Shown: piece after piece, positions 35,204 to 55,080 of the stretch
How the letters are laid out: each line of letters starts with the position of its first letter
How positions within the stretch are numbered: position 1 is the first letter of the stretch
Source: Patescibacteria group bacterium
GTDB taxonomy: Bacteria; Patescibacteriota; Minisyncoccia; Minisyncoccales; UBA5738
Reading direction: 5' to 3'
Length of the DNA stretch: 64,000 bases
Assembly (NCBI GenBank): GCA_022710775.1
Contig: JAKLGH010000001.1
Location: 134,522 to 198,521, forward strand
The notes under the pieces: model-generated
Told to the model about the DNA's origin: nothing
Seen by the model: only the letters and a program-made list of their open reading frames with translations
Database searches by the model: none
Translations under genes and position numbers: made by a program

Positions 35204-35232
35204 AAAAAAATCCCGGGAAATCAACCGGGATT
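35204..35232. terminator. bidirectional terminator (atcccggg-aaatcaa-cccgggat)
   Basis: between convergent 33648..35180(+) and 35221..35859(-). Confidence 0.6.
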
Positions 35233-35859
35233 CTGTTTAACAATGAATTTAATACTTTCTTCGCCGTTTTGGAAACTGAAGACGACAACGCCTTCTTTAC
35301 CTTCGGAAACAAGCTTCATTAAGGCTTGCCGGTCGCGGTAAGAGGTCATAAATACGATCTGGAAACCGCATCTTTGGCAGTTAATATGCATCTCCCGGGA
35401 GATGTCATTTAATCTGCCCGACAAACCAATGGTGGCTGTACCGCCGCCGCAGTCATCATGCCGAGCCATCAATTCTTCGATATCCCCGTCTTTATCAGCC
35501 AAGGGAAAGAATGTTCCAAGGCAATCTTTAGCGGCTCCGCCCGTCATGACAATTTCCTCGCTTTCTTCAGTTAATAGCGCGCTTAAGGCGCCAACCGCGG
35601 CGTCGCAGCCAAATCTATCGCGCAAAACTTTGGCAATGGCAAAAGATAGCTTAAAATCGGTGTCGAAAACCAGAAGAAAGGGCTTCTTTTTTCCATCCTC
35701 ACCCAAAGCATAGCGGCGGGCGGACGGCCAAAAGGTAATGTTACAACCCTTCTTGGCATTGCCAGGCAAACGATCCAAACATTTGCCGATTTCTTCGATC
35801 ATTTCTTCTTCATACTCGGTATTGGCAAAACCCCAGCCGATCGCGAAAATCTCAACCAT
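35221..35859 (-). CDS. paralog A of a tandem ~215-aa family with H-x-D-C-G-G-G and C-x-x-C putative zinc site (unknown function)
   Basis: shares with 35948..36595 and 36727..37383 an N-terminal M-x-E/N-I/V-x-x-x-G, a central ..AKVLRDRF.. block, H(D/E)(D/N)C and (I/V)(N/E)C-x-x-C. Confidence 0.6.
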   Translation of the reverse strand: MVEIFAIGWGFANTEYEEEMIEEIGKCLDRLPGNAKKGCNITFWPSARRYALGEDGKKKPFLLVFDTDFKLSFAIAKVLRDRFGCDAAVGALSALLTEESEEIVMTGGAAKDCLGTFFPLADKDGDIEELMARHDDCGGGTATIGLSGRLNDISREMHINCQRCGFQIVFMTSYRDRQALMKLVSEGKEGVVVFSFQNGEESIKFIVKQNPG

Positions 35860-35947
35860 ATTTATTGCCTCCTTTTTGTACTGGCCGAATAATAACGTTT
35901 TTAAAAATATTAGTCAAACAAATGGAGTGTAAAAAAAACGGCCTTTT

Positions 35948-36595
35948 TCAGGCCAAGTTTTTAAATATTATGCACTTTTTTGAAAAGATACCAAACCCTA
36001 AAATTGCTTCTTCTAACTTTCCTTTAACAACCAAGGCAAGCTCTTGCCTCATTTCCGGGTTTGTCAGTATGGTCTGTCGGAAACGGCAATTCCGGCATTC
36101 TATCACTAAATTTGCCATCTCTTCCGACTTGGCTTCCACCAATTCACGGTATTCTGCCGTGGCCTGCCCGCCGCCGCAGTCTTCATGGATTAAGTTTATC
36201 GGCTCCGGCCCATTGCCGTCTTTAAGAATCGATCTTGTCAGCGCCGACCCGGATTTAACAATAAACGTTCCCTTAACTTCGTATCGGCCTCTATCAATCG
36301 GACCGTCATGGCTTCCATAACAAGCTTCCATTCTTCCAACTTCGACATCCATGCGAAGCTTTTCCTGGAGCCGTTGTCCAATAAGCTTTGCTTTGGCCAC
36401 ATCGCTACCTCTGACAAGTAAAAAAGGCCCGGCGGCGGTCAAATCAGCCGCATTAACACAGAAACTGCCGGGGAATCCGCTGATCACGCTATCCGATTCG
36501 TACCCTTTTTTCATTTCGAAAATAATTCTTTGAATTTGCTTTTTCAGTTCTTCGATCTTGTCGGGTGGTCCTCCGATGATCATTACGTTTATCAC
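35948..36595 (-). CDS. paralog B of the tandem ~215-aa HxxC...CxxC family
   Basis: HEDCGGGQATAEY ... IECRNCRF; own terminator downstream (35900-35935). Confidence 0.6.
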   Translation of the reverse strand: MINVMIIGGPPDKIEELKKQIQRIIFEMKKGYESDSVISGFPGSFCVNAADLTAAGPFLLVRGSDVAKAKLIGQRLQEKLRMDVEVGRMEACYGSHDGPIDRGRYEVKGTFIVKSGSALTRSILKDGNGPEPINLIHEDCGGGQATAEYRELVEAKSEEMANLVIECRNCRFRQTILTNPEMRQELALVVKGKLEEAILGFGIFSKKCIIFKNLA

Positions 36596-36703
36596 GCTCT
36601 TTGCCTCCGTTTTTCATTGTTTTGTGCTGTCCGTAATTTACGCTAAAATACGTTACCTGTCAAACAAAAATCCCCGGTTTTCCAAGGAATAGCGCTTCCA
36701 AAA

Positions 36704-36727
36704 AGAAAATCCCGGTTATCCGGGATT
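36704..36727. terminator. terminator (atcccgg-ttat-ccgggat)
   Basis: 3' of paralog C. Confidence 0.5.
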
Positions 36728-37383
36728 CAGTAAAATTGTATTAATTTAATATACCTTGGCAATACGTTTTTGTTAACGTAAAGCAATAAGCTATTTGGCT
36801 TGGCATTGACAACGAATTTAGCGATTGCGTTGCGCGAATTGGGACCCATAACTAACACTTCCCGGAAACCGCACGCGCATTCGATTACCGCGTTGATATC
36901 GTCCAACAAAACCATTGCGGTTTCCTTTTGGGGACAGTTTTCATGAAGCAGATCAAGTCCGTCAATTTCTCTTTGTCCCGGCTTAACCTTAAAAGTTCCC
37001 TCCGGCTTATTCGCATGAACAATTTTATTGTCCAATTCCGGCCAGACACACTCGCGATTTGGATCCGGGGCGCTTAACGCCGGCCAATTTTCATTCGCGC
37101 ACAAGACCTGGCACGAATCTTTGGGCAAAAAAGCGTCGAGCCTTCCCAGCATTACATCGACGGATAAAGACTCGCGCAACACTTTAGCAACCTTAAACCC
37201 TCGCTTCGTATCGGAATCGGCTACTAAGCAAAAGCGAAATTGGTTTTGCAAGCCTGTCGCGAGACTCAAAAATGAAATCTTCAAGCCATCAGTTAACACG
37301 GTCTCATCCAGCAATTTTTTAATTTGCCGCGCCATTTCCGCCTGCTCGTTAGCCAGGCAACCCATTACATATATTTCGAACAT
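36727..37383 (-). CDS. paralog C of the tandem ~215-aa HxxC...CxC family
   Basis: HENCPQKETAMV ... IECACGF; ..KVAKVLRESL.. Confidence 0.6.
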   Translation of the reverse strand: MFEIYVMGCLANEQAEMARQIKKLLDETVLTDGLKISFLSLATGLQNQFRFCLVADSDTKRGFKVAKVLRESLSVDVMLGRLDAFLPKDSCQVLCANENWPALSAPDPNRECVWPELDNKIVHANKPEGTFKVKPGQREIDGLDLLHENCPQKETAMVLLDDINAVIECACGFREVLVMGPNSRNAIAKFVVNAKPNSLLLYVNKNVLPRYIKLIQFY

Positions 37384-37430
37384 CTACGGTCTCTCCTGAA
37401 AACTGGCTGGATAATAATATATAAACGTTA

Positions 37431-38894
37431 TTATGTCAAACAAAAATCCCCGGTTTTCTCCAAGGGATTATGCAAAAACTTTTGGCCGCTTCGTTCTCCG
37501 ACCGAGACGACCGAAACCGGAACATCCAAGCCTTCTGTTGATTCAAGGAAGGAAACGTAATTTCTGGCCTCCATCGGCAGATCTTTGAACTCTTTTGCCG
37601 CTCCGATCGGTTTTTTCCAGCCCGGAAATAGGCGGTACTCCAGGGGCCGGCACCCAAACAAAACTTCGGCTAAACCAGCGCGATCTTCCCCTTTTTTGCA
37701 AGGCTTAAACGCTTCCAAGCGCGCGCCGCCGGAACATGGCTGCCATTCAAAGAACCGGTCGACCAGATCCATCCGCTCTCCTTGGTAACAATACGCCACG
37801 CATATTTTTACCCTATTCAGTTCTGACAAGCGGTCCAGATTGGTAAGAGCCAAAGAATCGATTCCGCGGTTCGCGGCTATGCCATAGCGCGCAGCCACCA
37901 AATCTAGCCAGCCGGCTCTGAATTTTCCCTGCCAGGGCCTTGATGAGCCATGAGCGTCAAGCAAGTTTTGCGGCAAGCCGGATTCCTCGGTGACGAACGG
38001 CCCAAACCCGTGCCGCGTGGCATATGCCCGCAATATCCCGATTGTAATCATCTTTCTGCTTGGCATGTGCTCCAAAACCATTTTACGGGCGGTTTTGGCG
38101 GTCGTGCATGTCTTGGTGACATGGGGCAAAAAACCCCAGACCGGATCAAGCAACGCCCCCTGGGTTCCCTCAAAAAGCACGTATTCTGCCTGCTTTATGC
38201 TCAGAAAATAATCCCTGGCTGGTTCTAGCAGATGGCCATATTCCACCCGGAATCGCTGGCACTGTTCCAATATCCGTTTTTTGGGCATCCAGCGCCGGTA
38301 TTCGGCCAGGATGGCGGCAATTCTCCGGTCCTGTTTATTGGCATCGGCAATTGCCTGGGCCGCGGCTAATTTCTGTTCGTAGTGCCAATCCAGCTTCTGG
38401 CGCAATACTTCTTCGTTCAAGCAATCAATAGCGCGTAAAGCTTGGTCGGCAAAATTTTCCCGGTCGATAACCGCTTCGCCAACTCCCATTCCCACGGATC
38501 CGGGCCGGCTGGCTTTATTGATGGCCAGCGCTTTGACCCGGTTTAGCAGCGTATGCATCGGGGTAACCAGATAGCAGGCGGGATCAATTTTTACGCGCTC
38601 GGCAGCACCAATGACGCCCTTATGTTCGAGTTTTCGCGCCTCGATCACAAAATTCGGGATCTTAAACATCATGCCGCCCGACAAATAGCTATTAACGCCG
38701 GCCTGAAAAGTTGCCGACGAAAACTGGCTGAACGTATGTTCCCGCCCCGATCCATCGATAACCCGATGGCCGCCTTGCGGACCGCCGCTGTCCCTGATTA
38801 CGGTTTTTGCGCCCAATTCGTGGGCCAAATACGCCGTTATCGTACCTTTGCCCTCATCACCGAAACCCAAACCTCTTAATATGATCGCGTACAT
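37431..38894 (-). CDS. adenylosuccinate synthetase (PurA) family protein, divergent
   Basis: P-loop GDEGKGT (PurA QWGDEGKGK); ..GGHRVIDGSG.. (GGHNAGH); ..FEGTQGALLD.. (FEGAQGTLLD); ..ILRAYATRHGFGPFVTEE.. (ILKAYSTRVGAGPFPTEL); ~490 aa. Confidence 0.75.
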   Translation of the reverse strand: MYAIILRGLGFGDEGKGTITAYLAHELGAKTVIRDSGGPQGGHRVIDGSGREHTFSQFSSATFQAGVNSYLSGGMMFKIPNFVIEARKLEHKGVIGAAERVKIDPACYLVTPMHTLLNRVKALAINKASRPGSVGMGVGEAVIDRENFADQALRAIDCLNEEVLRQKLDWHYEQKLAAAQAIADANKQDRRIAAILAEYRRWMPKKRILEQCQRFRVEYGHLLEPARDYFLSIKQAEYVLFEGTQGALLDPVWGFLPHVTKTCTTAKTARKMVLEHMPSRKMITIGILRAYATRHGFGPFVTEESGLPQNLLDAHGSSRPWQGKFRAGWLDLVAARYGIAANRGIDSLALTNLDRLSELNRVKICVAYCYQGERMDLVDRFFEWQPCSGGARLEAFKPCKKGEDRAGLAEVLFGCRPLEYRLFPGWKKPIGAAKEFKDLPMEARNYVSFLESTEGLDVPVSVVSVGERSGQKFLHNPLEKTGDFCLT

Positions 38895-39825
38895 CGTTCC
38901 ACCAGCATTGTTTTCTTTCCCCCTTGTCCGATTTTTTCAGCCATTCGGCAACCCGTAAAAAGGCCGGGCCGCGAGCGCAAAGACTGTCGGAGAGCATGAA
39001 AGACTTATATCCCATCGCCTGAAGCAGGCGGTAATGGCTCAAGTCGCTCAATGCCGGCCTGTCCTGGTATTGCAGCGACATAAACAAGCGCGACGCGGCG
39101 ATCGCTTTCGGATCCGCATCGACGATCCGGTAAAGAGCATCGAGCATTTCGTCCTCTTGCCCGATGTTGATATAAAGGTCGTCGCATGCCGCCAGCAGCC
39201 TTACTTCTCGATTGTATGAAGGATAGATTTCGCGGACAAAATCCAGGCCCTTAGGCGTTTCGATCTTAGCCGCGATTATGGCTTTCGGATCAAGGTCAAA
39301 AACCGACGCGATGTCGCTTTCCTTTTCGACGTACGAAAGCATGAACCGGTGGATTCCCATAGCATTTCCGGCTTCAATGAATTCAGTATCAGCTTTTGTA
39401 AGATAACTATCTAAAATCAGCTCCTCGGTTCTGATATTGGCCGCCTGGCCCTGGCCGATCACTTTGCCCGGCACCGGGTCAACGAAAATCTCGTTGCCGT
39501 CGTAAGCCGCGATATCAAGCCATTCGTCTTCGTGGCGAAACAAAATTTTTGCCGGTAAACCCAATTTGATTATTTTGTGATTCAAAATGATCTGGCCGGC
39601 GGGCGGGAGCGACCAGCGCTCAACGCGCAATTGGCCGCCTTTCAGGTCAAGCCACAATTCTTTGGAACCCGCGGCCGCCAGAACCCGCTTGACGGTTTCT
39701 TGCGGACTCCAGGGCGTGTGGCATCCGATGTTATAGCGAAGCCCACCGATAACCGGCTCTTCAGCCACTGCCTTTATCTGTCTGGCAAAAGGCGCCGGCA
39801 AAGTGGCGTACCACAAATCCATCAC
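38857..39825 (-). CDS. pyruvate kinase-like (PK/HpcH TIM-barrel) protein without the PK C-terminal domain; overlaps the purA-like gene by 38 nt
   Basis: ..RYNIGCHT.. (PK NFSHG); ..WLDLKGGQLRV.. (PK LDTKGPEIRTG); ..IIAAKIETPKGLDFVREI.. (IISKIEN.EGV.N.DEI); ..LLAACDDLYINIG.. (MVARGDLGIEIP). Confidence 0.6.
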   Translation of the reverse strand: MMDLWYATLPAPFARQIKAVAEEPVIGGLRYNIGCHTPWSPQETVKRVLAAAGSKELWLDLKGGQLRVERWSLPPAGQIILNHKIIKLGLPAKILFRHEDEWLDIAAYDGNEIFVDPVPGKVIGQGQAANIRTEELILDSYLTKADTEFIEAGNAMGIHRFMLSYVEKESDIASVFDLDPKAIIAAKIETPKGLDFVREIYPSYNREVRLLAACDDLYINIGQEDEMLDALYRIVDADPKAIAASRLFMSLQYQDRPALSDLSHYRLLQAMGYKSFMLSDSLCARGPAFLRVAEWLKKSDKGERKQCWWNDVRDHIKRFGFR

Positions 39826-39863
39826 CTCCCGTTAATGAAAAAAGAAGCCTCATGGCTTCTTTG

Positions 39864-40829
39864 TTACAGCCTTTGGCCGGGACTGCTCCTTTGCTTTGCT
39901 TCTTTGTGTCCGTCGTCTGAAGGCACGCTTGCCGCTTCTCGAACCAGGATCTTGCTCAAATTTTGAAGCGCCAGGCATACTTCCGCTCGCCGCTCCGGAT
40001 CCTGGTCGCGATCTTTCATCTCCTGATCGTACTGCTCCAGCGTCCGCCCCGAATGCAGGGCAACCACTCCCAAAATGTAGTCAACCACGGCGTTGGGAGT
40101 TTCAAGCCGTAGCACATGTTCATCTCCAAGCGCGGCAGACCATAGGGCAACGATCTCGGCGTCGATGTCGCTGTCGCCATAACGGCGGTGAACCAGATAG
40201 GTATTAAACTTTTCCGAAAGCTGGCGGAAAACCTCCATGGAATCGGTTTCTTTTGCCTTGCCGCCGATATATTGCGCTACCTGCGTTGGCGATACTTGCG
40301 GATAGAATCCTTCGTCGGCGAAAAAGAACACGAATGATCTTTTTGGCTCCCTTGTTTCGACGTTATTCACCAGATAATGAGCCGCCAACTCGTAGGACTC
40401 CTGCCAGCCGCCGCCGCCGCTTCTCGGCTGGCGATACAACTTGAGTAATTCGCCTATGCCCGCTCCACCCCGAGCCAAACCGGCCACTTGCAACGGATAC
40501 TTGTCGCTATGGGCATCGTTCACGCTGCCCACGCAAACCAGCACGCTGCCAAGATACATCTCAAGCTCCCGCCAAAGCACAGCCCATTTATCGCGAATGA
40601 TATAGGCATCGTTACCCATCGAGCCGGTGTAATCGATGATGATAATAACAACGGTCTCGCCGATTTCGATCACTATTATCCGGTTCTTAGGAATAACGCT
40701 TACATCCGGCTCCATGCGTTCGCTCATTTCCCTTTGGGACTCTGCCGAAAATGCGCGGCCGGTATCATCTCTAGTAAAAGGCGTACTGCTTCTGGAACGC
40801 ACGCCTTCTTCACAACCTGGACTGCTCAT
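39864..40829 (-). CDS. von Willebrand factor A (vWA) domain protein (start probably internal, ~40727)
   Basis: MIDAS motif IIIDYTGSMGND (DxTGS), vWA-like beta-alpha pattern. Confidence 0.65.
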   Translation of the reverse strand: MSSPGCEEGVRSRSSTPFTRDDTGRAFSAESQREMSERMEPDVSVIPKNRIIVIEIGETVVIIIIDYTGSMGNDAYIIRDKWAVLWRELEMYLGSVLVCVGSVNDAHSDKYPLQVAGLARGGAGIGELLKLYRQPRSGGGGWQESYELAAHYLVNNVETREPKRSFVFFFADEGFYPQVSPTQVAQYIGGKAKETDSMEVFRQLSEKFNTYLVHRRYGDSDIDAEIVALWSAALGDEHVLRLETPNAVVDYILGVVALHSGRTLEQYDQEMKDRDQDPERRAEVCLALQNLSKILVREAASVPSDDGHKEAKQRSSPGQRL

Positions 40830-40921
40830 TTCTTCACCTTCCTTTTTAAAGTACTTGTGTCGCGATTTTTCGCAACCCGCTGCCCCTAATCCGCTTATGG
40901 CCAGCGGGTTGTTAAAAATTA

Positions 40922-40960
40922 CGCGGGGGAAGTTTTTTCACGAAACTTCCCCCGCGTTTC
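40922..40960. terminator. strong hairpin (13-bp stem cgcgggggaagtt/aacttcccccgcg) 3' of the J-domain/kinase-like gene, preceded by a second stem-loop (caacccgctg...cagcgggttg, ~40870-40915)
   Basis: perfect 13-bp stem, followed by ttt. Confidence 0.55.
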
Positions 40961-40961
40961 C

Positions 40962-42059
40962 CTAATCAACCGCGAAATATTCACAGCTATGCCGGGAGCC
41001 GAATAATTTTAAGCGCAAGTCCGACCAACGGTACCACGCGTCCCAAGCATCGCCTTCCCGCGAATCGGGATTGGTGGATACCAAAGCGGCTAAAAAATCA
41101 ACGATCTCTGGTTTAACCGCCGCCGGCATTTGGCCGGTAGCCGGATCGCCGCCCAAAGCAAAGATCAAACATTTGCCGAAAGCAAAAAGGTCGGTTTTTG
41201 GATCCAAAGGCGCCTCTTTGCTGATTTCAGGCGCGCCGTATATTTCGGATTTGAAACCGTAGCGGCCGCCCGATTTCTTTACGGACCAGCCAAAGCCAAC
41301 CAGATACACGTTATGGCTTTGAGGTTTGACAACCAGGTGCGCCGGCGTAAGATTGCCGTGCAGTCTCCCCAGAGAATGGAGTTCGCCGATCGTGAAAAAT
41401 CCCCGATCCGCGATCCAAGCCACGTGCTCCTGGGGAATGCCGTTTTGGTAACGCGGCATGGCTCGGAGCGAAACCAGGTCAAAACCGTCGATCAACTCCT
41501 CCACCAAGACCACCGATCCCTCTTTGGTCATGAACACGTCGATAAGTTTCGGTAGCTGGTAATGCCTTACGTTTTCCAAAACCTCTCTTTCGACCAGCAA
41601 GCGTTCGTTAGCCTCCGGGCCGTTGGCCACTTTTATGCACGCATTGTCGTCCTCGGCTCCATCCATCCGCGCCGCGTAAACCAACGAATTGTCGCCCCGC
41701 GCCAGCAGTTTGCTGATGGCGTATCTGCGGTTTGAGGTTTCAATCGGCTCAAAATACGGCAGGTCATGGCTTTCCGGATCAGGCAGGCCGTAGGTTCCAA
41801 GCTGGACCTTTTTCTCCGCCTCGGCGTAGAAATAAACGATCATATTGGCAATTTCGGCGGCTACGTCAAGAAATTCCTCGCTTTCCCCGGAATTGGCTTC
41901 CGGGTGGTAAAGATACAAAAGATTCGCGTATGCCTTTTTTAAACTTTCCAGGTTTTTTGCCGTTGTATCGCCCGCCAGTTCGCCGAAAAATTGTTCCGGC
42001 GTTCTGCATTTGACCGCCTTTTGGCGGAAGGCTTTAATTTGCTCCAGGCTGACAGCCAT
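40962..42059 (-). CDS. J-domain-like (HPE) + protein-kinase-fold protein with degenerate catalytic motifs (putative pseudokinase)
   Basis: N-terminal ..LKKAYANLLYLYHPEANSGESEEF.. (J-domain helix II/III, HPD->HPE); kinase fold: gly-rich loop LARGDNSLVY, VAIK-like ACIKV; catalytic loop HGNLTPAHLV (HRD...N: D->N) and DFG->GFG. Confidence 0.6.
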   Translation of the reverse strand: MAVSLEQIKAFRQKAVKCRTPEQFFGELAGDTTAKNLESLKKAYANLLYLYHPEANSGESEEFLDVAAEIANMIVYFYAEAEKKVQLGTYGLPDPESHDLPYFEPIETSNRRYAISKLLARGDNSLVYAARMDGAEDDNACIKVANGPEANERLLVEREVLENVRHYQLPKLIDVFMTKEGSVVLVEELIDGFDLVSLRAMPRYQNGIPQEHVAWIADRGFFTIGELHSLGRLHGNLTPAHLVVKPQSHNVYLVGFGWSVKKSGGRYGFKSEIYGAPEISKEAPLDPKTDLFAFGKCLIFALGGDPATGQMPAAVKPEIVDFLAALVSTNPDSREGDAWDAWYRWSDLRLKLFGSRHSCEYFAVD

Positions 42060-42439: not shown

Positions 42440-45400
42440 CTATTGTTCTTCCCAATCCGGAATGGACTTTTTTACCATTATGTTTTTCTCCAGCGAACAG
42501 GTATAGCCGCTGGAATCCGTAACCGTGAGCTTGGTCGTATAGTTGCCCTTGACCGGGTAAACAACCGTAAAAGTCTCAGCCACGGAAGTGTTTGGTACCG
42601 CGCCCTGGATAACCCAGGACCGGGAAGCGAACGTTGCTCCGCCGAAAACTTGCGTGTCATCGGTGTATGTCACTATATCATCCACTTTTGGATCGGCAGG
42701 GCTTAAACTGAAATCAACCGACGGATATCCGTGGAGCGGGGTCGTAAAGCCCGTTCCGGTGATCCAGCCGGATTCTTGGCCTTGGCTATCCCAAACCTTA
42801 AGGCGCCAGTAATATGCGGTATCATATTGAAGTTTTGAAGCCAGTGTTGCGTAGCTATTAGATGACGAAATTATTTTTCCCGAATCGTCGGCCGGCGATG
42901 AAAAATCGGGATCGTCGTCAACTTGCACCTGGCAGTGAGCCTGGGGATTGTTTTCAGGATCGGAGTAATTCCAGGAAAAAATAGTAGCCAAGCCGCTGGC
43001 GCAAAAATCGTTTTGAAAAACCAAAGTATCGGCGGCTGGCGGATCATTGCTCACGCTAACAGTAACCGTAGCGCTTTCGCTGGCTGCCAGGCTTTCCCGC
43101 TCAACGATCATTTTCGGAACGTAAAGGCCAGCCGCGGCGTAGGTATGATTAAGCGTTTTTACGGCGGCGCTGGAGCCGTCCTCTTTGTCGTCCCAAGCCC
43201 CGCAGGCAATAAGGCAGCCTGCTACGGTCGAACAGCTGTCGTTGCAATCGAACCAAACGGTGTAATTAATGGTACCGGCGGCAGTGCCGGATACCGTACC
43301 CGTTAAAACTACATTTAACGGAGCTGACCCAGAATCAGGAGCGGCAACAACATCAACCGATAACGTTGCCGGGCCGCCGCCGGAAACAACAGTTACAGTA
43401 TCGGTGTCGGAAGCGGTCAGGCTCGCCCGCTCCACAACGATCTTGGGAGTATAAACTCCGATGGCGGCGTAGGTATGATTAAGCGTTTTTACGGCGGCGC
43501 TGGAGCCGTCCTCTTTGTCGTCCCAAGCTCCGCAGGCAATAAGGCAGTCGGCTACGGTCGAACAGCTGTCGTTGCAATCAAACCAAGCGGTGTAATTAAT
43601 GGTACCGGCGGCAGTGCCGGACACCGTGGCCGCAAGAATAGTGGCAAGCGGAGCGTTGCCGGAAAACGGAGCCGCGGCAATATCAACCAATAACGTTGAA
43701 GCCGGGGAAACGGTAACCGTATCGCTTCCGAAGGCAACCATCGATCCGCGCTCCACGATGATCTTAGGCAGGTAAGTACCGGCGGCTGCGTAAGTATGGA
43801 CATAGCTTTTCACAGTATCGTTGGAACCGTCGTCTTTTGCGTTCCAAACGCCGCAATCAGCCACGCAGCCAACTACCGTCGAACAAGCGCTGTTACAATC
43901 ATACCAGACAGTGTAATTAACGGTTCCCGCGATATTGCCCGAAACCGTAGCGGTAATAGTCGTATCCAATGGCGCATTGCCGTGATCCGGACTAACGGCA
44001 ACCGCCACGTTCAGCGTTTTCGGACAGCTGGAACTCGCTACGCATTGGGATTCCGAAAGGCAGCCGCTGGGAGCGCAAGTCCGGTTTTGGCGCATTTGAT
44101 CCGCGGCGCAACTGCCCAAACCGCAATCGTCGTCGGCCCAAGCGGTGCAAACGCAGCATGTAGGATCGGCTACGCATTGGGTTTCAGCAAGACAAGCGGC
44201 CGGATTGCAAGTCCGGGTCTGCAATTTTTGCAAAAGCGTGCATCCGCCCGTACCGCAAGTTCCGGCGGTGCTCCACGATCCGCAGGAACAGGCAGAAACC
44301 GAAGACCTCGCTTCAGCAGTTAGACCTTCTCGCTCAATGAGGACTTTCGGCGTAGCGCTAGCAGTATATGTCGTCAATATCGAATAAGTCGCCGAAGCGT
44401 TATTGAGCGACTGATGGTCGGGTGCCTGGCAAGCGGCTTGGCAAGCGGATAAAGTGGAACAGGTATCGTTGCAATTCCACCAAAAATAGTAATTCAAAGT
44501 TCCTTGAGCGTTGCCCGAAGCTGTCGCGGTCAGCATGCTGGACAAAGGCGAGTTGCCCGATGAAGGACTAACGCTCAAGGACGCCGATAAATTTATACAG
44601 GAATTATCGGCAACGCATTGGCTCGCCGATTGGCAGCCGGCCGGATTACAAACCCGGGTCTGATTGCGCTGGCGCAAACTGCAAGTTCCTCCGCCGCAAG
44701 CTCCATTGGTCCACGAACCGCAGGAACAGCAGGTAGCGTCATTTACGCACTGGCCTTCGCTTTTACAGCCGGCCGGAGTGCAAGTCCTCGTTTGGTATCT
44801 TTTAGTATCTTGGCACGAACCTCCTCCGCATGCCTGGTTCGTCCAGGCGCCGCAAGTACAGGGTATATAGGATACTGTCGAATAAGCCGCTTGCCACGTA
44901 TAAGCCGATGTGGACGAATTCGGACCGCCGGCAATAATAAGCTTGCCGAAAGGATCCCAGCGCTGCATAATCCCGCGATAATAAACAACGAATCGGGCAT
45001 TCCCGGAAAATGACGCCGTCGGAAGCACAAAAGTCTTGTTATATGAAAATGAATTCACTTTGGAAACGCTTGAAGGACTGTAGGATCCCAGTTTGATTAT
45101 TTTAGTCGCGCCGCCGGTATTCACCGTATCGACTTCGTCGCAATAAGGAATTTTTGAACTGCCGCACCAGTCCTGGATCTTGCCGCAACAGGAAGAACAC
45201 GGGCTCCATTTACAACCTGGCCATTTTAAAGGACAAGGCACGGACGGAGAAAGTGTCGGACAGGATCCGGCCGTCGAGCAGCTGTACATCAAACAGCTTT
45301 CCTGATCGTAATATTCATCGTTGCAAGCATCGATCAAAGGCACTTTGGCGTCTTCCATCATATAAAATTCCATTATACCGCCGCTCCAGCCCGCCGTGTA

Positions 45401-45613
45401 TCCTGAAGCCGCAACGTTTGACTTTACCGTCCCCGAAAAGGTTACTGTCTGTCCGTCGGTATAGGATCCGCTGACCGGACTTGTCGGCACTATCGTAGAA
45501 CCCCAATTACCGCAGCTCATCACGTTTGTCACCGCCGCGAATGACAGATCGGGAGCGACCCAAAAAATAGCAACGAATGCCAAAAATGCGGCAGATATGT
45601 TTTTTTTGGTCAT
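42440..45613 (-). CDS. giant secreted surface-protein paralog P1 (1057 aa): signal peptide, four Cys-rich TSP1-like repeats, three tandem PKD-like modules, FN3-like domain, C-terminal PKD domain ending ..SIPDWEEQ
   Basis: signal peptide MTKKNISAAFLAFVAIFWVAPDLSFA; repeats CxCxxWxxxxCGxGxCxxxQxxQTRxCxPxxCxxxxQCVxDxxC; C-terminal ~95 aa shared with P2-P5. Confidence 0.8.
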   Translation of the reverse strand: MTKKNISAAFLAFVAIFWVAPDLSFAAVTNVMSCGNWGSTIVPTSPVSGSYTDGQTVTFSGTVKSNVAASGYTAGWSGGIMEFYMMEDAKVPLIDACNDEYYDQESCLMYSCSTAGSCPTLSPSVPCPLKWPGCKWSPCSSCCGKIQDWCGSSKIPYCDEVDTVNTGGATKIIKLGSYSPSSVSKVNSFSYNKTFVLPTASFSGNARFVVYYRGIMQRWDPFGKLIIAGGPNSSTSAYTWQAAYSTVSYIPCTCGAWTNQACGGGSCQDTKRYQTRTCTPAGCKSEGQCVNDATCCSCGSWTNGACGGGTCSLRQRNQTRVCNPAGCQSASQCVADNSCINLSASLSVSPSSGNSPLSSMLTATASGNAQGTLNYYFWWNCNDTCSTLSACQAACQAPDHQSLNNASATYSILTTYTASATPKVLIEREGLTAEARSSVSACSCGSWSTAGTCGTGGCTLLQKLQTRTCNPAACLAETQCVADPTCCVCTAWADDDCGLGSCAADQMRQNRTCAPSGCLSESQCVASSSCPKTLNVAVAVSPDHGNAPLDTTITATVSGNIAGTVNYTVWYDCNSACSTVVGCVADCGVWNAKDDGSNDTVKSYVHTYAAAGTYLPKIIVERGSMVAFGSDTVTVSPASTLLVDIAAAPFSGNAPLATILAATVSGTAAGTINYTAWFDCNDSCSTVADCLIACGAWDDKEDGSSAAVKTLNHTYAAIGVYTPKIVVERASLTASDTDTVTVVSGGGPATLSVDVVAAPDSGSAPLNVVLTGTVSGTAAGTINYTVWFDCNDSCSTVAGCLIACGAWDDKEDGSSAAVKTLNHTYAAAGLYVPKMIVERESLAASESATVTVSVSNDPPAADTLVFQNDFCASGLATIFSWNYSDPENNPQAHCQVQVDDDPDFSSPADDSGKIISSSNSYATLASKLQYDTAYYWRLKVWDSQGQESGWITGTGFTTPLHGYPSVDFSLSPADPKVDDIVTYTDDTQVFGGATFASRSWVIQGAVPNTSVAETFTVVYPVKGNYTTKLTVTDSSGYTCSLEKNIMVKKSIPDWEEQ
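43070..44010 (-). repeat. intragenic tandem repeat in P1, period ~330 bp, three PKD-like modules (two copies share an identical ~100-bp core at 43141 and 43471)
   Basis: aggtatgattaagcgtttttacggcggcgctggagccgtcctctttgtcgtcccaagc occurs twice. Confidence 0.7.
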
Positions 45614-45649
45614 AAAAACCTTTCTTTTTCAGCCTCGATTATAGGCATA

Positions 45650-48600
45650 CTACAATTCCTCCCAATCCGGCAGGCTGCTGTTCACGGTAATATCCTTTTG
45701 AAGCGAACAGGTATAGCCGTTGGAATCGGTAACCGTAAGCTTGGTAACGTAATCTCCTTTAACGGCGTAGGTAACGGCCGGAGATTCCGCAACGGAGGTG
45801 TTCGGATTAGCGCCATCGATCTCCCAGGAGCGCGAAACGATCGTTGCCCCGCCGAATACTTGGGTTAGATCGGTATAGGTAATTAGTTCAGTTGCCTTGG
45901 GCGGAGCCGGAGTAGAACTGAAATCAATCGCCGGATAAGCGTGGAGCGGCGTTGAAAAATCAGGACCGTTAACCCAGCCGGAATCATTACCCCAGCTATC
46001 CCAAACTTTAACGCGCCAGTGGTAAACAATATCGTAACCAAGTTTTGAAGCCAAAGTTACGTAGCTCGTAGATGAAGCCGCCGCTTTGCCCGTGTCGTCG
46101 GCCGGAGAGGAAAAATCCGCATTATTATCAACCTGAACTTGGCGGAAAACCTGGGGGTCGTTTTCGGGATCCGAATAGGTCCAGGAAAACATGGTGGAAA
46201 GGCCGCTGCCGCAATAATCGGCCTGCTTCAACAAGGCAGTCGCCGACGGCGGACCGTTAATGGCAGTAACCGCCACTGTGCCGGCGGCGGCAAGGTTATG
46301 GCGCTCCACGATCATTTTGGGATGGAATGTTCCCGCGGCCGCGTAGGTATGGTTAATGGTACGGGTTACGGCGGCCTGGCCGTCGGCCTTGTCATCCCAG
46401 GCTCCGCAGGAGGCCTGGCAGGCGCTAACCGTGGCGCAGGGATCATCGCAATCCCACCAGGTAGTGTAATTGATGGTGCCGACCGCCGTGCCTCCCACCG
46501 TGCCGGTAATGGCTGTGGTTAACGGCGCTTGGGCGGAAACCGGACTGGCGGCCACGGAAACCGTAAGGGTCCGGGGACAAACCGCGCTGGCAACGCATTG
46601 TGATTCAATATTGCATCCGGATACGTTGCAGGTGCGGACCTGGCGCATCTGGTTAGCCGGACAGCCGCCCAATTCGCAATCATCATCGCTCCAAGCTCCG
46701 CAGACGCAACAAGCGATATCATTAACGCATTGGGTTTGGGCAAGGCAGTTGAGCGGGTTGCAAATTCTTGTTTGTTCCCGCTGCAGCGGGCCGCAGCTTC
46801 CCGCCCCGCAGGCCGCATTAGACCAGGCGCCGCAATCGCAATAGTTCACCAAAAAATCGAGGGCGCTATCGCCCGCCAGATCCCATGAGCGCTGGTCGGA
46901 ATACGAACATTTAACGAATTTGTTCTGGCCCGCAACCTGATATTCGTAAGTGGCCGCGTTAGTATGGCAAGTATTGTTTGAAACACCGTGGATGAAATTA
47001 TATCCGGCCGGCAATCCCGAAGATATCCGGACGCAGTAGCTGTCGCCCAAGAAAATCGATTTTGCCCAATTGCCGGATGAATCCGTAGTCGCGGTTCCCG
47101 CGCCGCACAGATCAAGCACGGCATTCGGTATGCCGTTCCCTTTTTCGTCCTTGACGCTGCCGCCGATCGTTACCGGCTGCTTAACCGCAACCAGCACGTT
47201 GGGCGTGTAATCGCCAAACCATTCTTTTCCTTCCTGAATCATGCGCCATCGGAAATTATAATTTCCGGGAGTTACGGGAGCCGTAACATTAAATGAAAAT
47301 GTTTTGGAACTATTGGTCGAGACATCGCTTCCTACGCTTACCCGCGATAGACCCCAAGTGGTATTATCCTGCGGGTTCTGGGATCCTAAATTGTAATTTT
47401 TTGCCGTAGTCCAAGTGGTGTATCCGTTATTCTTCATCGTAATGGATATAGGATAGGTTTGCCCAACCGTCATAGTAGCCGGAACTGTCTGGCTGATATA
47501 TTGAGCATTGTTTCCCAACCGCTGGTAAGCAATAACCCAGCACCGCGAATTTTCCATGTAACTTGCGTCCATTGCGTCTGGATGCCACCTTTTGTATGTT
47601 CCTAGAAGCTCGATCCAAAAACGAACTCCATTGGATGTATCGAATCCGGTCGGTATGTCAAAAGTTTTATTCCATTGCGGGCTGCCTTGCAAACCATAAG
47701 GACCAACTGAGCCTAAAAGCGTAATCGGCTGACTAGCGGTGTTTAAACATCTTCGGCCGCCGCAATTATAAGTTGGAATATCCACATCCGAAGAAATGAA
47801 AAATTTAATGCTGGATATCAAATATCCTCCGCCATAAGGAGTATAGTTATGCCACAATCCTCCTCTAAAATTAACTGTTGGAGCGGATGGGCCAAGCGGA
47901 CTAGACCAAGACATCGAATCAATTGAGTATTCCGTAACGATGGTATAAGCGCTGGCTGATTGAGCGAAAAAAATCCCCGAGAGCGTAAAAAAGATTGGAA
48001 AAAATATCCAAACCATATTCCTGGAACGGTACTTCCAAACCAGAAACAAAATAAGGATAATTGCGATAAATATCGTTATCCATAAAAATACGGATTCATC
48101 CTTTTTTTCCTCAACCTCCTCGAACGCAATCGGATCCGTTTTAACATCTGCCGCTATCTCTGCCGGTTTTCCCGCTTCGTACTCGGAAAGCGTAACTCCG
48201 CCTTTGGCAATTTTAACTGAGACCAGCGGCGATGCAAAGTCTTTGTTTACGGATATGCTCCGTTCAAAAACATCGTCCTCCAGCGAACCCGAACCGTTTT
48301 CCGTTGCTATAATTTCTCCATCATCGATTATCTTGGCAGATATATCGATATCGATACCGTCTTGCACATATGTTTTCGAACCCTCCAAAGCAACCCGCAA
48401 AATAGCTGTTTCTCCGGCTAAATAGCTGGATTTATCAAGGCTTACGTCAAGAATATCCATAAAAGACGCCCCAATTTTTTCTTTGGCGATATAGCGGCCG
48501 GTTATAATATTTGACGCCGGACTTAAAGTCTTCGAATCAAAGAGCTGAATTGTGGCATTGTATATTCCCGGTTCTTTGATTTCTGGAAGTAGCAGTTCCA

Positions 48601-49294
48601 GATCCTTGCTCTCGCCCTTGATAAGCGAAATCGCGCTTCCGTCGACAGACTCATCCGCGCCGCCGCCGATAAGTTTTGTTTTTACCTTGAAGAATACATC
48701 CCTGTTCAAAACCGCAGTGTTGCCAACTTTCACCGATACCCGAGGCTGTTTTCCGACATAATGGTTTAAAAGCATCTCGATTAAAGCATCTTTTGGGTTT
48801 GGCGGATTCCAGCTTTCCAGCAACCATTTCGCTTCAGACAGCACTACTGGCGAACCGGCTCCTTTAACGGATACGGGAAATTCCCTGTAATCGAATTGAT
48901 AACCCTTTTCATTAGCCAGTATTAACTTCAATGTGGCGTTAGCTTCGGGAAGCGTATCAGGCAGAAAACACTCCGCTTCTTGGCTGATCGATCCTTCTGC
49001 CGGAAGGGTGAAAATTCCGCTAATGTCGCGCATCCACAGTTGTTTCGTTCCACTCTTATCCACGACCCACAGTTCGCAGGAAAGTGAGGTAAGCTTGTCG
49101 ATTGTTCCTCCCGAGACCGAAGCCTTAACTACTGCCCGTTCTCCGGCCTCCAACTCGCTTTCGTCAAAATAGGCTTCAAATATGCGGGGCTGGTTTTCCG
49201 AAGCCCATTCTTCAGCGTATGCCGGATAGATGGCCGCCATGCAAAATCCCATTAAAGAAAACGCGTAGATTGATATAAGTGATTTTTTTTTCAT
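45650..49294 (-). CDS. paralog P2 (1214 aa), apparently an in-frame fusion: an upstream ~425-aa secreted protein ending in a TM anchor + KYRSRN, directly followed by a new signal peptide (MVWIFFPIFFTLSGIFFAQSASA) and a ~790-aa P-type module ending ..SLPDWEEL
   Basis: no stop between ..LVWKYRSRN and MVWIFF.. (around 48020); downstream part contains two TSP1-like repeats, PKD, FN3-like and C-terminal PKD domains. Confidence 0.75.
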   Translation of the reverse strand: MKKKSLISIYAFSLMGFCMAAIYPAYAEEWASENQPRIFEAYFDESELEAGERAVVKASVSGGTIDKLTSLSCELWVVDKSGTKQLWMRDISGIFTLPAEGSISQEAECFLPDTLPEANATLKLILANEKGYQFDYREFPVSVKGAGSPVVLSEAKWLLESWNPPNPKDALIEMLLNHYVGKQPRVSVKVGNTAVLNRDVFFKVKTKLIGGGADESVDGSAISLIKGESKDLELLLPEIKEPGIYNATIQLFDSKTLSPASNIITGRYIAKEKIGASFMDILDVSLDKSSYLAGETAILRVALEGSKTYVQDGIDIDISAKIIDDGEIIATENGSGSLEDDVFERSISVNKDFASPLVSVKIAKGGVTLSEYEAGKPAEIAADVKTDPIAFEEVEEKKDESVFLWITIFIAIILILFLVWKYRSRNMVWIFFPIFFTLSGIFFAQSASAYTIVTEYSIDSMSWSSPLGPSAPTVNFRGGLWHNYTPYGGGYLISSIKFFISSDVDIPTYNCGGRRCLNTASQPITLLGSVGPYGLQGSPQWNKTFDIPTGFDTSNGVRFWIELLGTYKRWHPDAMDASYMENSRCWVIAYQRLGNNAQYISQTVPATMTVGQTYPISITMKNNGYTTWTTAKNYNLGSQNPQDNTTWGLSRVSVGSDVSTNSSKTFSFNVTAPVTPGNYNFRWRMIQEGKEWFGDYTPNVLVAVKQPVTIGGSVKDEKGNGIPNAVLDLCGAGTATTDSSGNWAKSIFLGDSYCVRISSGLPAGYNFIHGVSNNTCHTNAATYEYQVAGQNKFVKCSYSDQRSWDLAGDSALDFLVNYCDCGAWSNAACGAGSCGPLQREQTRICNPLNCLAQTQCVNDIACCVCGAWSDDDCELGGCPANQMRQVRTCNVSGCNIESQCVASAVCPRTLTVSVAASPVSAQAPLTTAITGTVGGTAVGTINYTTWWDCDDPCATVSACQASCGAWDDKADGQAAVTRTINHTYAAAGTFHPKMIVERHNLAAAGTVAVTAINGPPSATALLKQADYCGSGLSTMFSWTYSDPENDPQVFRQVQVDNNADFSSPADDTGKAAASSTSYVTLASKLGYDIVYHWRVKVWDSWGNDSGWVNGPDFSTPLHAYPAIDFSSTPAPPKATELITYTDLTQVFGGATIVSRSWEIDGANPNTSVAESPAVTYAVKGDYVTKLTVTDSNGYTCSLQKDITVNSSLPDWEEL

Positions 49295-49470
49295 TTACCG
49301 TTAAGTTAAGTTATTTCTTACGTCTATCTTATATTTTATATTTTAATGCTTATTATCGGTAACGTAAACTCTTATCAAAGGATATCTTTTAACCGCAATT
49401 TACAAACTCTTATACCTAGGTAGCCGTACGCAAAAAAGCCGTTATGGTTTTTTTAAAAGACTATCCTGGC

Positions 49471-51720
49471 CTAACCCTCCTCCCAGTCCGGAATGCTCTT
49501 CTTGACCGTAATGTTCTTTGTGGCCGAGCAGGTATAGCCTTGGGAATCGGTGACCGTAAGTTTGGTGGAATAGTCGCCTTTTGCCGCGTAGGTAACGGCC
49601 GGAGATTCCGCAACGGAGATGTTCGGATCAGCGCCATCGATCTCCCAGGAGCGCGAAACGATCGTTGATCCGCCGAATATCTGGGTTAGATCGGTATAGG
49701 TGATCAGTTCCGCCGCTTTCGGGGTCGAAGGCGTCCAGCTGAAATCGATCGCGGGATAGCCGTGGAGCGGGGTCGTGAAGCTGGGACCGCTCACCCAGCC
49801 GGAATTATTGCCCGCGCTGTCCCAAACCTTGATGCGCCAGTAGTAAGTGGTGTTGTAGGCAAGCTTGGAAGACAGAACGGTGTAGCTGGTCGATGACGCG
49901 GCCGCTTTGCCCGTGTCGTCAACCGCTGAAGAGAAATTGGAATTATCGTCCACCTGCACCTGGCGGAAAGCCTGGGGATCGTTCTCGGGATCCGAATAGG
50001 TCCAGGAAAACATGGTGGAAAGGCCGCTGCCGCAATAATCGGTCTGATTCACCAAAGCGCTCACCGACGGCGGACCGTTGATAACAGTTACCGCGACGGA
50101 ACCGGAAGCCGAAAGGCTGTGGCGTTCCACGATCATTTTAGGATGGAAAATTCCCGCGGCCGAATAGGTGTGGTTAAGAGCGCGAACCATAGCGGCCTGG
50201 CCGTCGGCCTTGTCATCCCAGGCTCCGCAGGCAGCCTGGCAGTCGCTAACCGTGGCGCAGGGGTCATCGCAATCCCACCAGGTGGTGTAATTGATGGTGC
50301 CGACCGCCGTGCCTCCCACCGTTCCGGTAATGGTCGTGGCCAGGGGGGCGTTGCCCGTGTTCGGATTAGCTGTCAGGGATAAAGTAAGGGTGCGGGGGCA
50401 GGAAGCGGAAGCCGCGCATTGGGATTCAACGTCGCAAGCGGCCGGATTGCAGGTCCGGGTCTGGCGCATCTGGTTAGCCCCGCAGGTCCCCAGGCCGCAA
50501 TCATCGTCGGCCCAGGCGGTGCAAACACAGCAGGTGGCGTCGGCTACGCACTGGCTTTGGGTCAGGCAATTGACCGGATTGCAGGTCCGGGTCTGCTGGC
50601 GCTGGAGCGTGGTGCAGCTTCCGGCGGCGCAAGCCCCATTGGCCCAGGGAGTGCAGGCGCAGGCCGGGCCGGTCACAGTAAAGGATTTCACTGGCGTTTG
50701 GTTAACGTTCCCGGCACGGTCCGTCGCTTTAAGATAATAAGTATGGGAACTGCCGGACGAGTAAGGCCCGGCGGTAAAAACGCATTGCTGTAAAGAGGTT
50801 TGGCCGGCAAAAGGACATGATTTTGCGAGAACCCCGTCAACGTAAATTGAAATATTCGTTAAACCGCTAAGAGCATCCTGGCCATTCGCGGTATAAGTTA
50901 CTGAATCCGTGTTTGCGACCGAAACCGGCGAATGGTTAATGCTCGCCGTTGGTTTTGCGCGATCAAGGCCGAACCCTATAATATCGGACTTGCCGCTTGA
51001 AGGCGAACCGATATTAAAAGGATCCACTTGTCCGTTTAACATGATATAAAAAGACCAAGTATGCCACCCATCCTGAATTCCGGTTTTTTTCACATTATAC
51101 GTACCCGCTCCACCCGATATTAGCTCATAAAACATATTGCCTTTCCCGTTCAACACGTCGTCAATCCAAATAACTCTGGTTCCGGTGGTACCATATAACG
51201 GCGTAAATTTATCGAGTTTGATCTGGTAAGTGGGATCGGTATTGATCCAGATATTTTTTGGGCCAACCGGTTCGTAATCAATCCCCTTGCCGGTTGATTC
51301 AAGATGCACATGAAGATCGGAAGTCCTGCCGGTTATGTCGTTGAAATTTGAGTAGTAGTAACAAGCGTTGAACGAACGGTAGCTGCCGCCGCCATCGATG
51401 TCCATTACGAACCTATCGTTCTTTTTCAGGCAAACAGACGCCGATGATCCGTTGGAAACGATTGCCGAATCCGTCACTTGTCCGGTTGACATCGATTCAG
51501 CGGTAAGCTTTATTTTAGCCACCTTCACTATTGCTTGGCTTGAATAGGCCCGGGTCGTTACGCGTATCTCTGCCATGCCGGAACCGCAGCTGTTGCCCTT
51601 AACCCAATCATATTGATACAGCCAGCCAGAGGTCGATCCGGCAATAGCCTGGCCGGAAAAACAAAATACCGCCAAAAAAAAAGTCGTAGCCGCAACTGTT
51701 GCAATTTGTTTTTTGGTCAT
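49471..51720 (-). CDS. paralog P3 (749 aa): signal peptide, N-terminal beta-rich domain, two TSP1-like repeats, PKD, FN3-like, C-terminal PKD ending ..SIPDWEEG
   Basis: 3' ~1.2 kb near-identical to P4 and closely similar to P2. Confidence 0.8.
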   Translation of the reverse strand: MTKKQIATVAATTFFLAVFCFSGQAIAGSTSGWLYQYDWVKGNSCGSGMAEIRVTTRAYSSQAIVKVAKIKLTAESMSTGQVTDSAIVSNGSSASVCLKKNDRFVMDIDGGGSYRSFNACYYYSNFNDITGRTSDLHVHLESTGKGIDYEPVGPKNIWINTDPTYQIKLDKFTPLYGTTGTRVIWIDDVLNGKGNMFYELISGGAGTYNVKKTGIQDGWHTWSFYIMLNGQVDPFNIGSPSSGKSDIIGFGLDRAKPTASINHSPVSVANTDSVTYTANGQDALSGLTNISIYVDGVLAKSCPFAGQTSLQQCVFTAGPYSSGSSHTYYLKATDRAGNVNQTPVKSFTVTGPACACTPWANGACAAGSCTTLQRQQTRTCNPVNCLTQSQCVADATCCVCTAWADDDCGLGTCGANQMRQTRTCNPAACDVESQCAASASCPRTLTLSLTANPNTGNAPLATTITGTVGGTAVGTINYTTWWDCDDPCATVSDCQAACGAWDDKADGQAAMVRALNHTYSAAGIFHPKMIVERHSLSASGSVAVTVINGPPSVSALVNQTDYCGSGLSTMFSWTYSDPENDPQAFRQVQVDDNSNFSSAVDDTGKAAASSTSYTVLSSKLAYNTTYYWRIKVWDSAGNNSGWVSGPSFTTPLHGYPAIDFSWTPSTPKAAELITYTDLTQIFGGSTIVSRSWEIDGADPNISVAESPAVTYAAKGDYSTKLTVTDSQGYTCSATKNITVKKSIPDWEEG

Positions 51721-51774
51721 GTTAAAGCCTATTAGCGTATTAACTTTTTTATCTGTAAAAAAATCCGGCTTAGG

Positions 51775-52242: not shown

Positions 52243-52278
52243 TTTAATATTGATGCTTGGATTTATAAGATATCCATC

Positions 52279-54531: not shown

Positions 54532-54532
54532 G

Positions 54533-55018: not shown

Positions 55019-55080
55019 ATGTTAAAAAATTTTAATCAATGATTATTATATTATAGCCCTAATCTGCTGTTTCAATAAGC

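Follow-up and report, generated by a model that had tools for sequence, protein, structure and literature searches.

The window analyzed here is a 64,000-nt stretch of contig JAKLGH010000001.1 from a Patescibacteria group bacterium, and it contains an array of three tandem minus-strand open reading frames (ORFs) at 35221-37383, designated A (212 amino acids [aa]), B (215 aa), and C (218 aa). The array lies directly behind a purA-like gene, which is its upstream anchor, and the three genes code for members of a new, unannotated, and extremely rare protein family. The array is probably composed of three separately signaled cassettes, with a history in which a B-type gene once stood directly behind purA, a short element at the purA border was duplicated, and coding sequences (CDSs) have been swapped between conserved flanks. 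A single element of 40 bp, which ends one gene and starts the next, bounds the duplicated unit, and its two copies are near-perfect beside paralogs with 25% identity.

The repeated element and the predicted cassette signals

The proteins encoded by A, B, and C have pairwise identities of 28%, 26%, and 25% (BLASTP; E values of 2e-11, 2e-10, and 9e-10, respectively) and score 226 to 286 bits against a family hidden Markov model (HMM). Only these three match when the 64-kb window is searched with the family HMM, and there is no fourth copy. The relationships of the sequences indicate that they are paralogs, both old and strongly divergent. The initial annotation of this region had proposed three divergent tandem paralogs, each with its own terminator, and the ORFs, the BLASTP matches, and the hairpin predictions all agree with it. 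The adjoining genes are homologous, and noncoding junction sequence is repeated along with the unit, as is characteristic of tandem duplication. The GC content of the cassettes carries no signature of foreign DNA. An assembly artifact was considered and rejected, as three loci from ENA, NCBI, and JGI, which represent 18 contigs carrying exactly protein A, match the window at 100% identity over 8.6 kb.

The repeat includes a 25-nt sequence, TGTCAAACAAAAATCCCCGGTTTTC, which is present as exact copies at 36658-36682, in the spacer between C and B, and at 37434-37458, at the 3′ end of the purA-like gene. There is no further copy in the window, even with three mismatches allowed, and a match was found in 0 of 100 shuffles. 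Extended by eye, 36651-36688 aligns with 37426-37466, with 36 of 41 columns identical and one 2-bp gap. A repeat of about 40 bp with a 2-bp deletion, shared by the C-B spacer and the purA-like 3′ end, had been noted previously and is evident here; the similarity stands on alignment, and only its earlier coordinates were displaced, by some 10 nt. In coding (minus-strand) orientation the sequence is CCTTGG(AG)AAAACCGGGG-ATTTTTGTT-TGACA, and it is predicted to consist of the hairpin that terminates the purA-like gene, the T-run behind this hairpin, and the −35 box of the promoter of the next gene, with the U/T-run of the terminator directly abutting the −35 box TTGACA. The element thereby forms the 5′ edge of a cassette. 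Two tandem hairpins therefore stand in front of B, the terminator of C itself and then the terminator-like hairpin of the relic element. The stem in the related contig L007 has a compensatory change, from GG:CC to GC:GC, which speaks for a functional hairpin, and the element is ∼89% identical between the window and the distant relative L003.

The ancestral purA codons within the repeat amount to only ∼11 nt (AATCCCTTGG versus ATTCCTTGG), and these form the 5′ arm of the hairpin. In L001, L003, and L007 the purA-like ORF ends with ..HNPL(E/V/R)-TAA, and the stop codon is in the hairpin loop. The repeat had been interpreted as a copy of the coding 3′ end of the purA-like gene (..LEKTGDFCLT*), and this interpretation fails, as most of the segment is noncoding in these three relatives. 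The accompanying suggestion that the duplicated unit reached the purA-like terminus is correct in part: the unit in front of B does carry ∼11 nt of the last purA codons, and the remainder is regulatory. The window has GGAGAAAACC where L001 has GGAATAAAACC, with consequent loss of the purA-like stop codon and a product of 487 aa versus 479 aa. The eight added codons, KTGDFCLT (37431-37457, minus strand), run through the T-run and the −35 box of the C promoter. This read-through is strain specific, with only the window strain having lost the stop codon among the sequences compared, and it illustrates how a read-through ORF can make regulatory DNA resemble a coding relic. Sequencing error was rejected as its cause, as the ENA, NCBI, and JGI loci are identical to the window at this site.

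A 25-nt perfect match beside 25%-identical paralogs is not a neutral relic of the same age as those paralogs. To judge from the sequences, either the element would have been preserved by the dual constraint of terminator and promoter, or old cassettes would have been joined fairly recently, or both.

In each cassette the CDS is predicted to be preceded by a sigma-70-like promoter, a short leader that includes a conserved CCAG box, and a ribosome-binding site, and to be followed by an intrinsic terminator (Table 1). A GGAG-type ribosome-binding site precedes the start codons of A, B, and C, and the decamer TTTGTTTGAC is restricted in the window to three sites, one in front of each gene. The terminator hairpins of the three genes, each followed by a T-run, have folding energies of −10.5 to −14.6 kcal/mol (z scores of −2.6 to −3.0). 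In an alignment of eight junctions from four genomes, TTGAC and CAG are invariant and the predicted promoters and terminators are conserved. A common core, AAUCCC(G/U)G...C(C/G)GGGAUU, is found in four of the five local hairpins (35207-35234, 36707-36728, 37448-37465, and 36671-36688), and the B terminator (GGCCU...AGGCC) departs from it; the shared core suggests a stereotyped terminator sequence of the region or of the genome.

Table 1. Coordinates of the array genes and of the predicted signals and elements in the window
Feature	Position	Strand	Description
Terminator hairpin A	35207-35234	minus	Predicted; GAAUCCCGG-loop-CCGGGAUUUUUUU; −14.6 kcal/mol, z −3.0; between A and the convergent YkuD gene
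Copy A	35221-35859	minus	212 aa; N-domain plus HDDCGGG...CQRC zinc-ribbon motif
Putative promoter A	35889-35922	minus	TTTGTTTGACT (−35 TTGACT), 17-nt spacer, TATTAT; then GGCCAGTAC box and AGGAGG ribosome-binding site
Terminator hairpin B	35939-35955	minus	Predicted; GGCCU-loop-AGGCC, then U8
Copy B	35948-36595	minus	215 aa; GTG start; HEDCGGG...CRNC
Putative promoter B	36635-36663	minus	TTGACA, 17-nt spacer, TAAATT
Relic element copy	36651-36692	minus	purA codon remnant ATTCCTTGG, predicted hairpin CCUUGG-AAAA-CCGGGG (36688-36671), T-run, −35 box TTGACA
Terminator hairpin C	36707-36728	minus	Predicted; then conserved tail UUUCUUUUUGGAAGCGCUA
Copy C	36727-37383	minus	218 aa; variable slot adjoining the purA-like gene; HENCPQK...CAC; linker insertion of ∼25 aa
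Putative promoter C	37411-37439	minus	TTGACA, 17-nt spacer, TATTAT; 11/12 consensus positions
purA-like gene	37431-38894	minus	487 aa versus 476-479 aa in relatives; upstream anchor of the array
Original element	37434-37468	minus	Predicted hairpin AAUCCCUUGG-loop-CCGGGGAUU, T-run, −35 box; overlapped by the extended purA-like ORF

Replacement of slot C and history of the array

The window and L001 are 97 to 99% identical over most of 18 kb, and their sliding identity is ∼50 to 64% within C. BLASTN homology between the two ends ∼10 nt before the C start codon and resumes at the C stop codon, and the flanks of the slot are 96% and 91.6% identical. The two slot C proteins share 34% identity by BLASTP (37% over MAFFT-aligned codons), with saturated synonymous divergence (dS) and without DNA similarity. 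These borders indicate that the slot C difference is the replacement of a CDS inside conserved regulatory flanks, and not rapid divergence by point mutation. Copy A is 88% identical to its L001 ortholog. A mosaic tract at about 41800-35200, covering the C-terminal half of a kinase gene, a gene for a 321-aa protein, a PK-like gene, and B and A, shows 78 to 95% identity to L001 within the 97 to 99% background, and dS is 0.33 to 0.38 for the kinase, 321-aa, and PK-like genes versus 0.03 to 0.09 in flanking genes. The pattern indicates that the tract consists of imported alleles, with a recombination hot spot that would be wider than the array.

Ratios of nonsynonymous to synonymous divergence (dN/dS; Nei-Gojobori), which rest on two sequences per gene (window and L001) and are gene- and domain-wide values, are 0.38 for A (dS, 0.15) and 0.32 for B (dS, 0.27), and per-domain values for these two are 0.2 to 0.38; those of flanking genes are 0.03 to 0.3 (dS, 0.03 to 0.09). 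Constraint on A and B is thus relaxed and imported divergence is high, with gene-wide dN/dS well below 1. Of the 11 consecutive residues 148 to 158 of B (36124-36156), in the loop between the zinc knuckles, 10 are different in L001, with no frameshift; this stretch represents a locally hypervariable patch or else a short tract of conversion.

The full-length family is limited to nine representatives among ∼15 billion proteins, as recovered by a word-indexed search (5.8 billion proteins) and an exhaustive HMM search (1.84 billion cluster representatives), and all are from one narrow clade; the array genome belongs to Candidatus Paceibacterota, within the candidate phyla radiation (CPR). In every family-bearing contig recovered (the window, L001/L002, L003-L006, L007, and ERZ1426562/ERZ1426681) the family immediately follows the purA-like gene, and wherever the contig extends far enough, a convergent YkuD transpeptidase gene comes next. 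Copy number varies, as had been raised for checking by the initial annotation: there are three copies in the window and in L001/L002, and L003-L006 and ERZ1426562/ERZ1426681 have a single copy, which lies between purA and YkuD. L007 has at least one copy behind purA, its 1.45-kb contig ending just after the gene, and no genome among the recovered relatives has more than three. A neighbor-joining tree resolves five deep types, namely the B type (four genomes), the A type (two), C of the window, C of L001, and the gene of L003. Next to purA, the window, L001, and L003 each carry a type of their own, and L007 and ERZ1426562 carry the B type. In ERZ1426562 the single B-type gene (2561-3199) is separated from the YkuD gene by 423 nt versus 52 nt in L003, and this gap could hold the remnant of a lost cassette.

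Several junctions bear on the order of events. In the alignment of eight junctions, the B promoter and leader of the window, TTGACAGGTAACGTATTTTAGCGTAAATTACGGACAGCACAAAAC, match the spacer between purA and the family gene in L007, TTGACAGCCGGTTTGTTTGGTGTAAATTATGAACAGTACAAAAC, and the L007 gene is of the B type; the B cassette, with its copy of the element, would hence once have been directly behind purA. The terminator and tail of C (..GGGATTTCTTTTTGGAGCGCTA) share 92% identity with the sequence that follows the single L003 gene, in genomes that are only about 70% identical. The C unit and the relic element join at about 36690, where GCGCTA is followed by TTCCTTGG.

In the history that we consider probable, the ancestor would have had one B-type cassette directly behind purA, an arrangement that L007 and ERZ1426562 still show. 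Unequal or illegitimate recombination would later have inserted a second, by then highly divergent cassette between purA and B, and this insertion would have duplicated the element. Copy A would derive from another duplication, whose copy keeps only TTTGTTTGAC. The element copies would have stayed near-identical because both termination and −35 recognition constrain them, and the conserved flanks would let whole CDSs be swapped by homologous recombination. Such swapping would explain both the different slot C gene in a strain that is 97 to 99% identical and the two further types held by three single-copy relatives. Behind the corresponding four-gene module of the more distant L011 there is no family gene, which suggests that the family joined this position recently and only in this clade, with predicted signals of its own.

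Predicted proteins and gene neighborhood

A, B, and C have no match in Pfam (E values up to 1), NCBIfam, or PADLOC, and searches of PDB sequences with full-length and N-domain profiles gave nothing meaningful, including no MIF or 4-oxalocrotonate tautomerase (4-OT) chain at E values up to 10. An AlphaFold model was built for B without its first four residues from an 18-sequence alignment (a 6-sequence model with a predicted local distance difference test [pLDDT] score of 54 was too poor and was set aside), and it has a mean pLDDT of 83.7 and a predicted template modeling score (pTM) of 0.52. Residues 1 to 90 of the model form a beta-alpha-beta-beta-alpha-beta domain and residues 100 to 211 a beta-rich domain. 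H133-x2-C136 and C163-x2-C166 are each placed at a predicted hairpin turn, and the two knuckles on predicted beta-hairpins correspond to an H-C-C-C zinc-ribbon arrangement. H133, C136, C163, and C166 are invariant in the nine members, with the second knuckle of copy C being CxC. The HxxC...CxxC motif previously ascribed to all three copies accordingly describes A and B (HxxCGGG...CxxC), and copy C departs from it (HENCPQK...C-A-C), with a shortened second knuckle and without the GGG.

The top 35 Foldseek matches in the PDB to the model are all MIF or D-dopachrome tautomerase (best E value, 3.8e-3; probability, 0.99). The catalytic Pro1 position is not occupied by proline: position 2 is Val in A (MVEI), Ile in B (MINV), and Phe in C (MFEI), and Thr or Val in other two-domain members. 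The tautomerase resemblance is therefore a moderate lead from modeling, and membership in the superfamily is not established, with Pro1 and the sequence profiles both failing. An N-domain profile search added two more members only, and no named ones. There are ∼10 stand-alone relatives of the N-domain (92 to 131 aa), most of which start with MPNI and so keep Pro1, including homologs of ∼95 to 112 aa at L008 714-1001, L009 1243-1581, and L010 373-672; they are found among housekeeping genes (GroEL, gyrB, and pheST) with no consistent context. These form a rare unannotated family and may be true tautomerase-like enzymes. The two-domain proteins are cytoplasmic, and they are inferred, with low confidence, to bind protein or nucleic acid via the zinc ribbon rather than to act in catalysis. 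Their fast turnover would point to a strain-specific interaction (conflict or immunity) rather than to purine metabolism. The predicted architecture, a tautomerase-like fold without Pro1 together with a zinc ribbon, is unusual, and in the literature searched nothing was found on a tautomerase-like domain fused to a zinc ribbon or on this locus.

The purA-like protein matches PF00709 (E value, 7e-73) and contains GDEGKG and GGH motifs, and its NCBIfam score of 214 bits is below the 402-bit equivalog cutoff. It has ∼240 homologs, mostly of 450 to 490 aa, in CPR and other phyla, and those that their sources name are annotated as adenylosuccinate synthase; a scan of genome contigs with the PurA-like protein gave no match. 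A four-gene module that includes it is conserved in L001, L003, and L011 and codes for a Ser/Thr kinase, the 321-aa protein, a PK-barrel-like protein, and the PurA-like protein (window, 38857-42059; L011, 1656-6431, with a PurA that is 48% identical). The kinase has a weak DnaJ-like N terminus, the PK-barrel/HpcH-like protein is 322 aa long, and its ORF overlaps that of the PurA-like protein by 38 nt. The 321-aa protein contains a MIDAS-like DYTGSM motif and has no family match; a vWA identity was considered for it, and with this motif only and no Pfam or PDB support it was not adopted and is a lead only. Neighbors in L011 include a CN-hydrolase/NAD-synthase gene, and two ORFs adjoining purA there resemble, as judged by eye, a nucleotidyltransferase and a Nudix protein.

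PADLOC gave no match for A, B, C, or the purA-like, PK-like, or 321-aa proteins, and generic kinase-domain matches only for the 365-aa kinase. A Pfam scan of the neighbors showed no toxin or defense gene among the proteins scanned. Farther along the minus strand, 42440-57957 contains five large tandem ORFs (749 to 1,214 aa) with Ig_Rha78A_N-like and PKD domains at the C terminus, and two small ORFs (155 and 161 aa) interleaved among them; this is probably a second paralog expansion, of surface proteins.

Alternative histories and comparison with known systems

The initial annotation had read the array as one segmental triplication that included the coding 3′ end of purA, with the copies then driven apart at the locus by diversifying selection, in the manner of immunity or effector genes. 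The ∼11 nt of purA codons in the repeat, the high divergence of the paralogs, the variable copy number, the B patch with 10 changes in 11 residues, and dN/dS values for A and B above those of most flanking genes all speak for it. Most of the supposed coding relic is noncoding in all relatives, however, and a 25-nt perfect match is incompatible with a neutral relic beside such divergent paralogs. Two types are purA adjacent in single-copy relatives (the B type in L007 and the ERZ contigs, and a separate type in L003), and the slot C difference is a replacement with sharp borders. The gene-wide dN/dS of A and B gives no support to diversifying selection, and immunity- or effector-like behavior is not reflected in any toxin or defense partner detected by Pfam or PADLOC for the proteins scanned. 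This history is unlikely, and the sequence comparisons indicate that the strong divergence is a consequence of ancient paralogy and of cassette replacement in a recombination hot spot. An ancestral array of four or more types, from which the genomes came to differ by deletion between repeated elements, is highly unlikely. Direct-orientation repeats are natural substrates for deletion, the five genomes each keep a different subset of the five types, and the C terminator tail is conserved behind the single L003 gene; but the leader is common to the window and L001 as far as the ribosome-binding site, with different slot C genes following it, which simple deletion does not predict, two independent deletions would be needed between strains that are 97 to 99% identical, and a genome with more than three copies was not found. 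It is barely credible that the 25-nt match is a generic regulatory or mobile motif (a stereotyped terminator, a repetitive extragenic palindromic sequence, or a miniature inverted-repeat transposable element) that is uninformative about duplication. All local terminators do share AAUCCCGG...CCGGGAUU, and a 20-mer has exact matches in unrelated bacteria, but those matches, in metagenome and genome collections, are accompanied by no family member and no other similarity and are chance matches. Moreover, the window has two copies only, even with mismatches, the decamer is confined to the fronts of A, B, and C, and the homology extends past the motif into the B leader and the L007 spacer.

A different role for the proteins, as accessory or regulatory partners of the PurA-like and PK-barrel-like pair (for example, a ligand-sensing zinc-ribbon regulator) whose variation reflects drift in a small symbiont population, is distinctly unlikely. 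It is favored by the position of the family behind the purA-like gene in every genome that has it and by weak fold matches to the nucleotide-pathway regulators PyrR and NrdR (probability, 0.2 to 0.35). Against it are the predicted promoter and terminator of each copy, the presence of the four-gene module without the family in L011, the contrast between ∼240 PurA-like homologs and only nine family representatives, and the multiple very divergent copies, which would be unexpected of a dedicated partner. The proteins may be linked to PurA in function, but nothing requires this. In a tentative extension, which we consider doubtful, the purA-YkuD spacer would be a dedicated cassette slot in which terminator/promoter sequences serve as handles and in which CDSs for strain-specific conflict binding factors are swapped, stacked, or lost. 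If true, this would be a new kind of variable-cassette locus in episymbiotic CPR bacteria, providing, for example, immunity to a toxin, a phage, or a host factor.

Several considerations weigh against the swapped-cassette history or its extension. The reconstruction of how, and in what order, the cassettes were acquired draws on five genomes, one of which is represented by a 1.45-kb contig, and the promoters and terminators are consensus predictions. The constant position beside purA in all family-bearing genomes could mean a functional link, and dN/dS below 1, together with no neighboring toxin or defense gene and no PADLOC match, argues against a conflict role. At the protein level, the pTM leaves the mutual arrangement of the two predicted domains uncertain, the fold match is modest (template modeling [TM] score of 0.44 to 0.52 on target length, with a root mean square deviation of about 5 Å), and the MIF-like fold lacks sequence-profile support from the Pfam and PDB profile searches. 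The finding is modest and descriptive, and the locus would gain in value should the cassettes turn out to be strain-specific factors of conflict or immunity. Such orphan genes abound in CPR bacteria, and a slot with different versions in close strains is a good place to seek genes for symbiont-host or phage interactions.

The array resembles the tandem immunity-gene arrays of polymorphic-toxin and bacteriocin loci in having several small, very divergent tandem paralogs coding for cytoplasmic proteins, copy number and alleles that vary between strains, and a local recombination hot spot. It differs from them in that no adjacent toxin, secretion, or defense gene is detected, gene-wide dN/dS is below 1, and the neighbors look like housekeeping genes (PurA-like, YkuD, SIMPL, and a sigma factor). 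The likeness to the tautomerase superfamily (MIF, D-DT, and 4-OT) is in the predicted beta-alpha-beta-beta-alpha-beta topology of the N-domain and in the stand-alone relatives of ∼95 aa that start with Met-Pro, whereas A, B, and C have no Pro1, no profile match, and a modest TM score, and are fused to a zinc-ribbon domain. Zinc ribbons such as those of NrdR, RNA polymerase subunit A12.2/TFIIS, and Lar-type restriction alleviation proteins share the HxxC and CxxC knuckles and give weak structural matches, but in this family His serves as the first ligand, the first knuckle is followed by a conserved GGG, copy C has CxC, and the ribbon is embedded in a beta-domain of ∼110 aa with a C-terminal helix and hairpin. 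In ordinary tandem segmental duplication with later unequal crossing-over, whole transcription units are likewise arranged head to tail with a direct-orientation repeat at the junction. Here, however, the copies are 25 to 28% identical and yet the junction repeat is near-perfect, and the CDS of one slot has been exchanged between strains inside conserved regulatory flanks.

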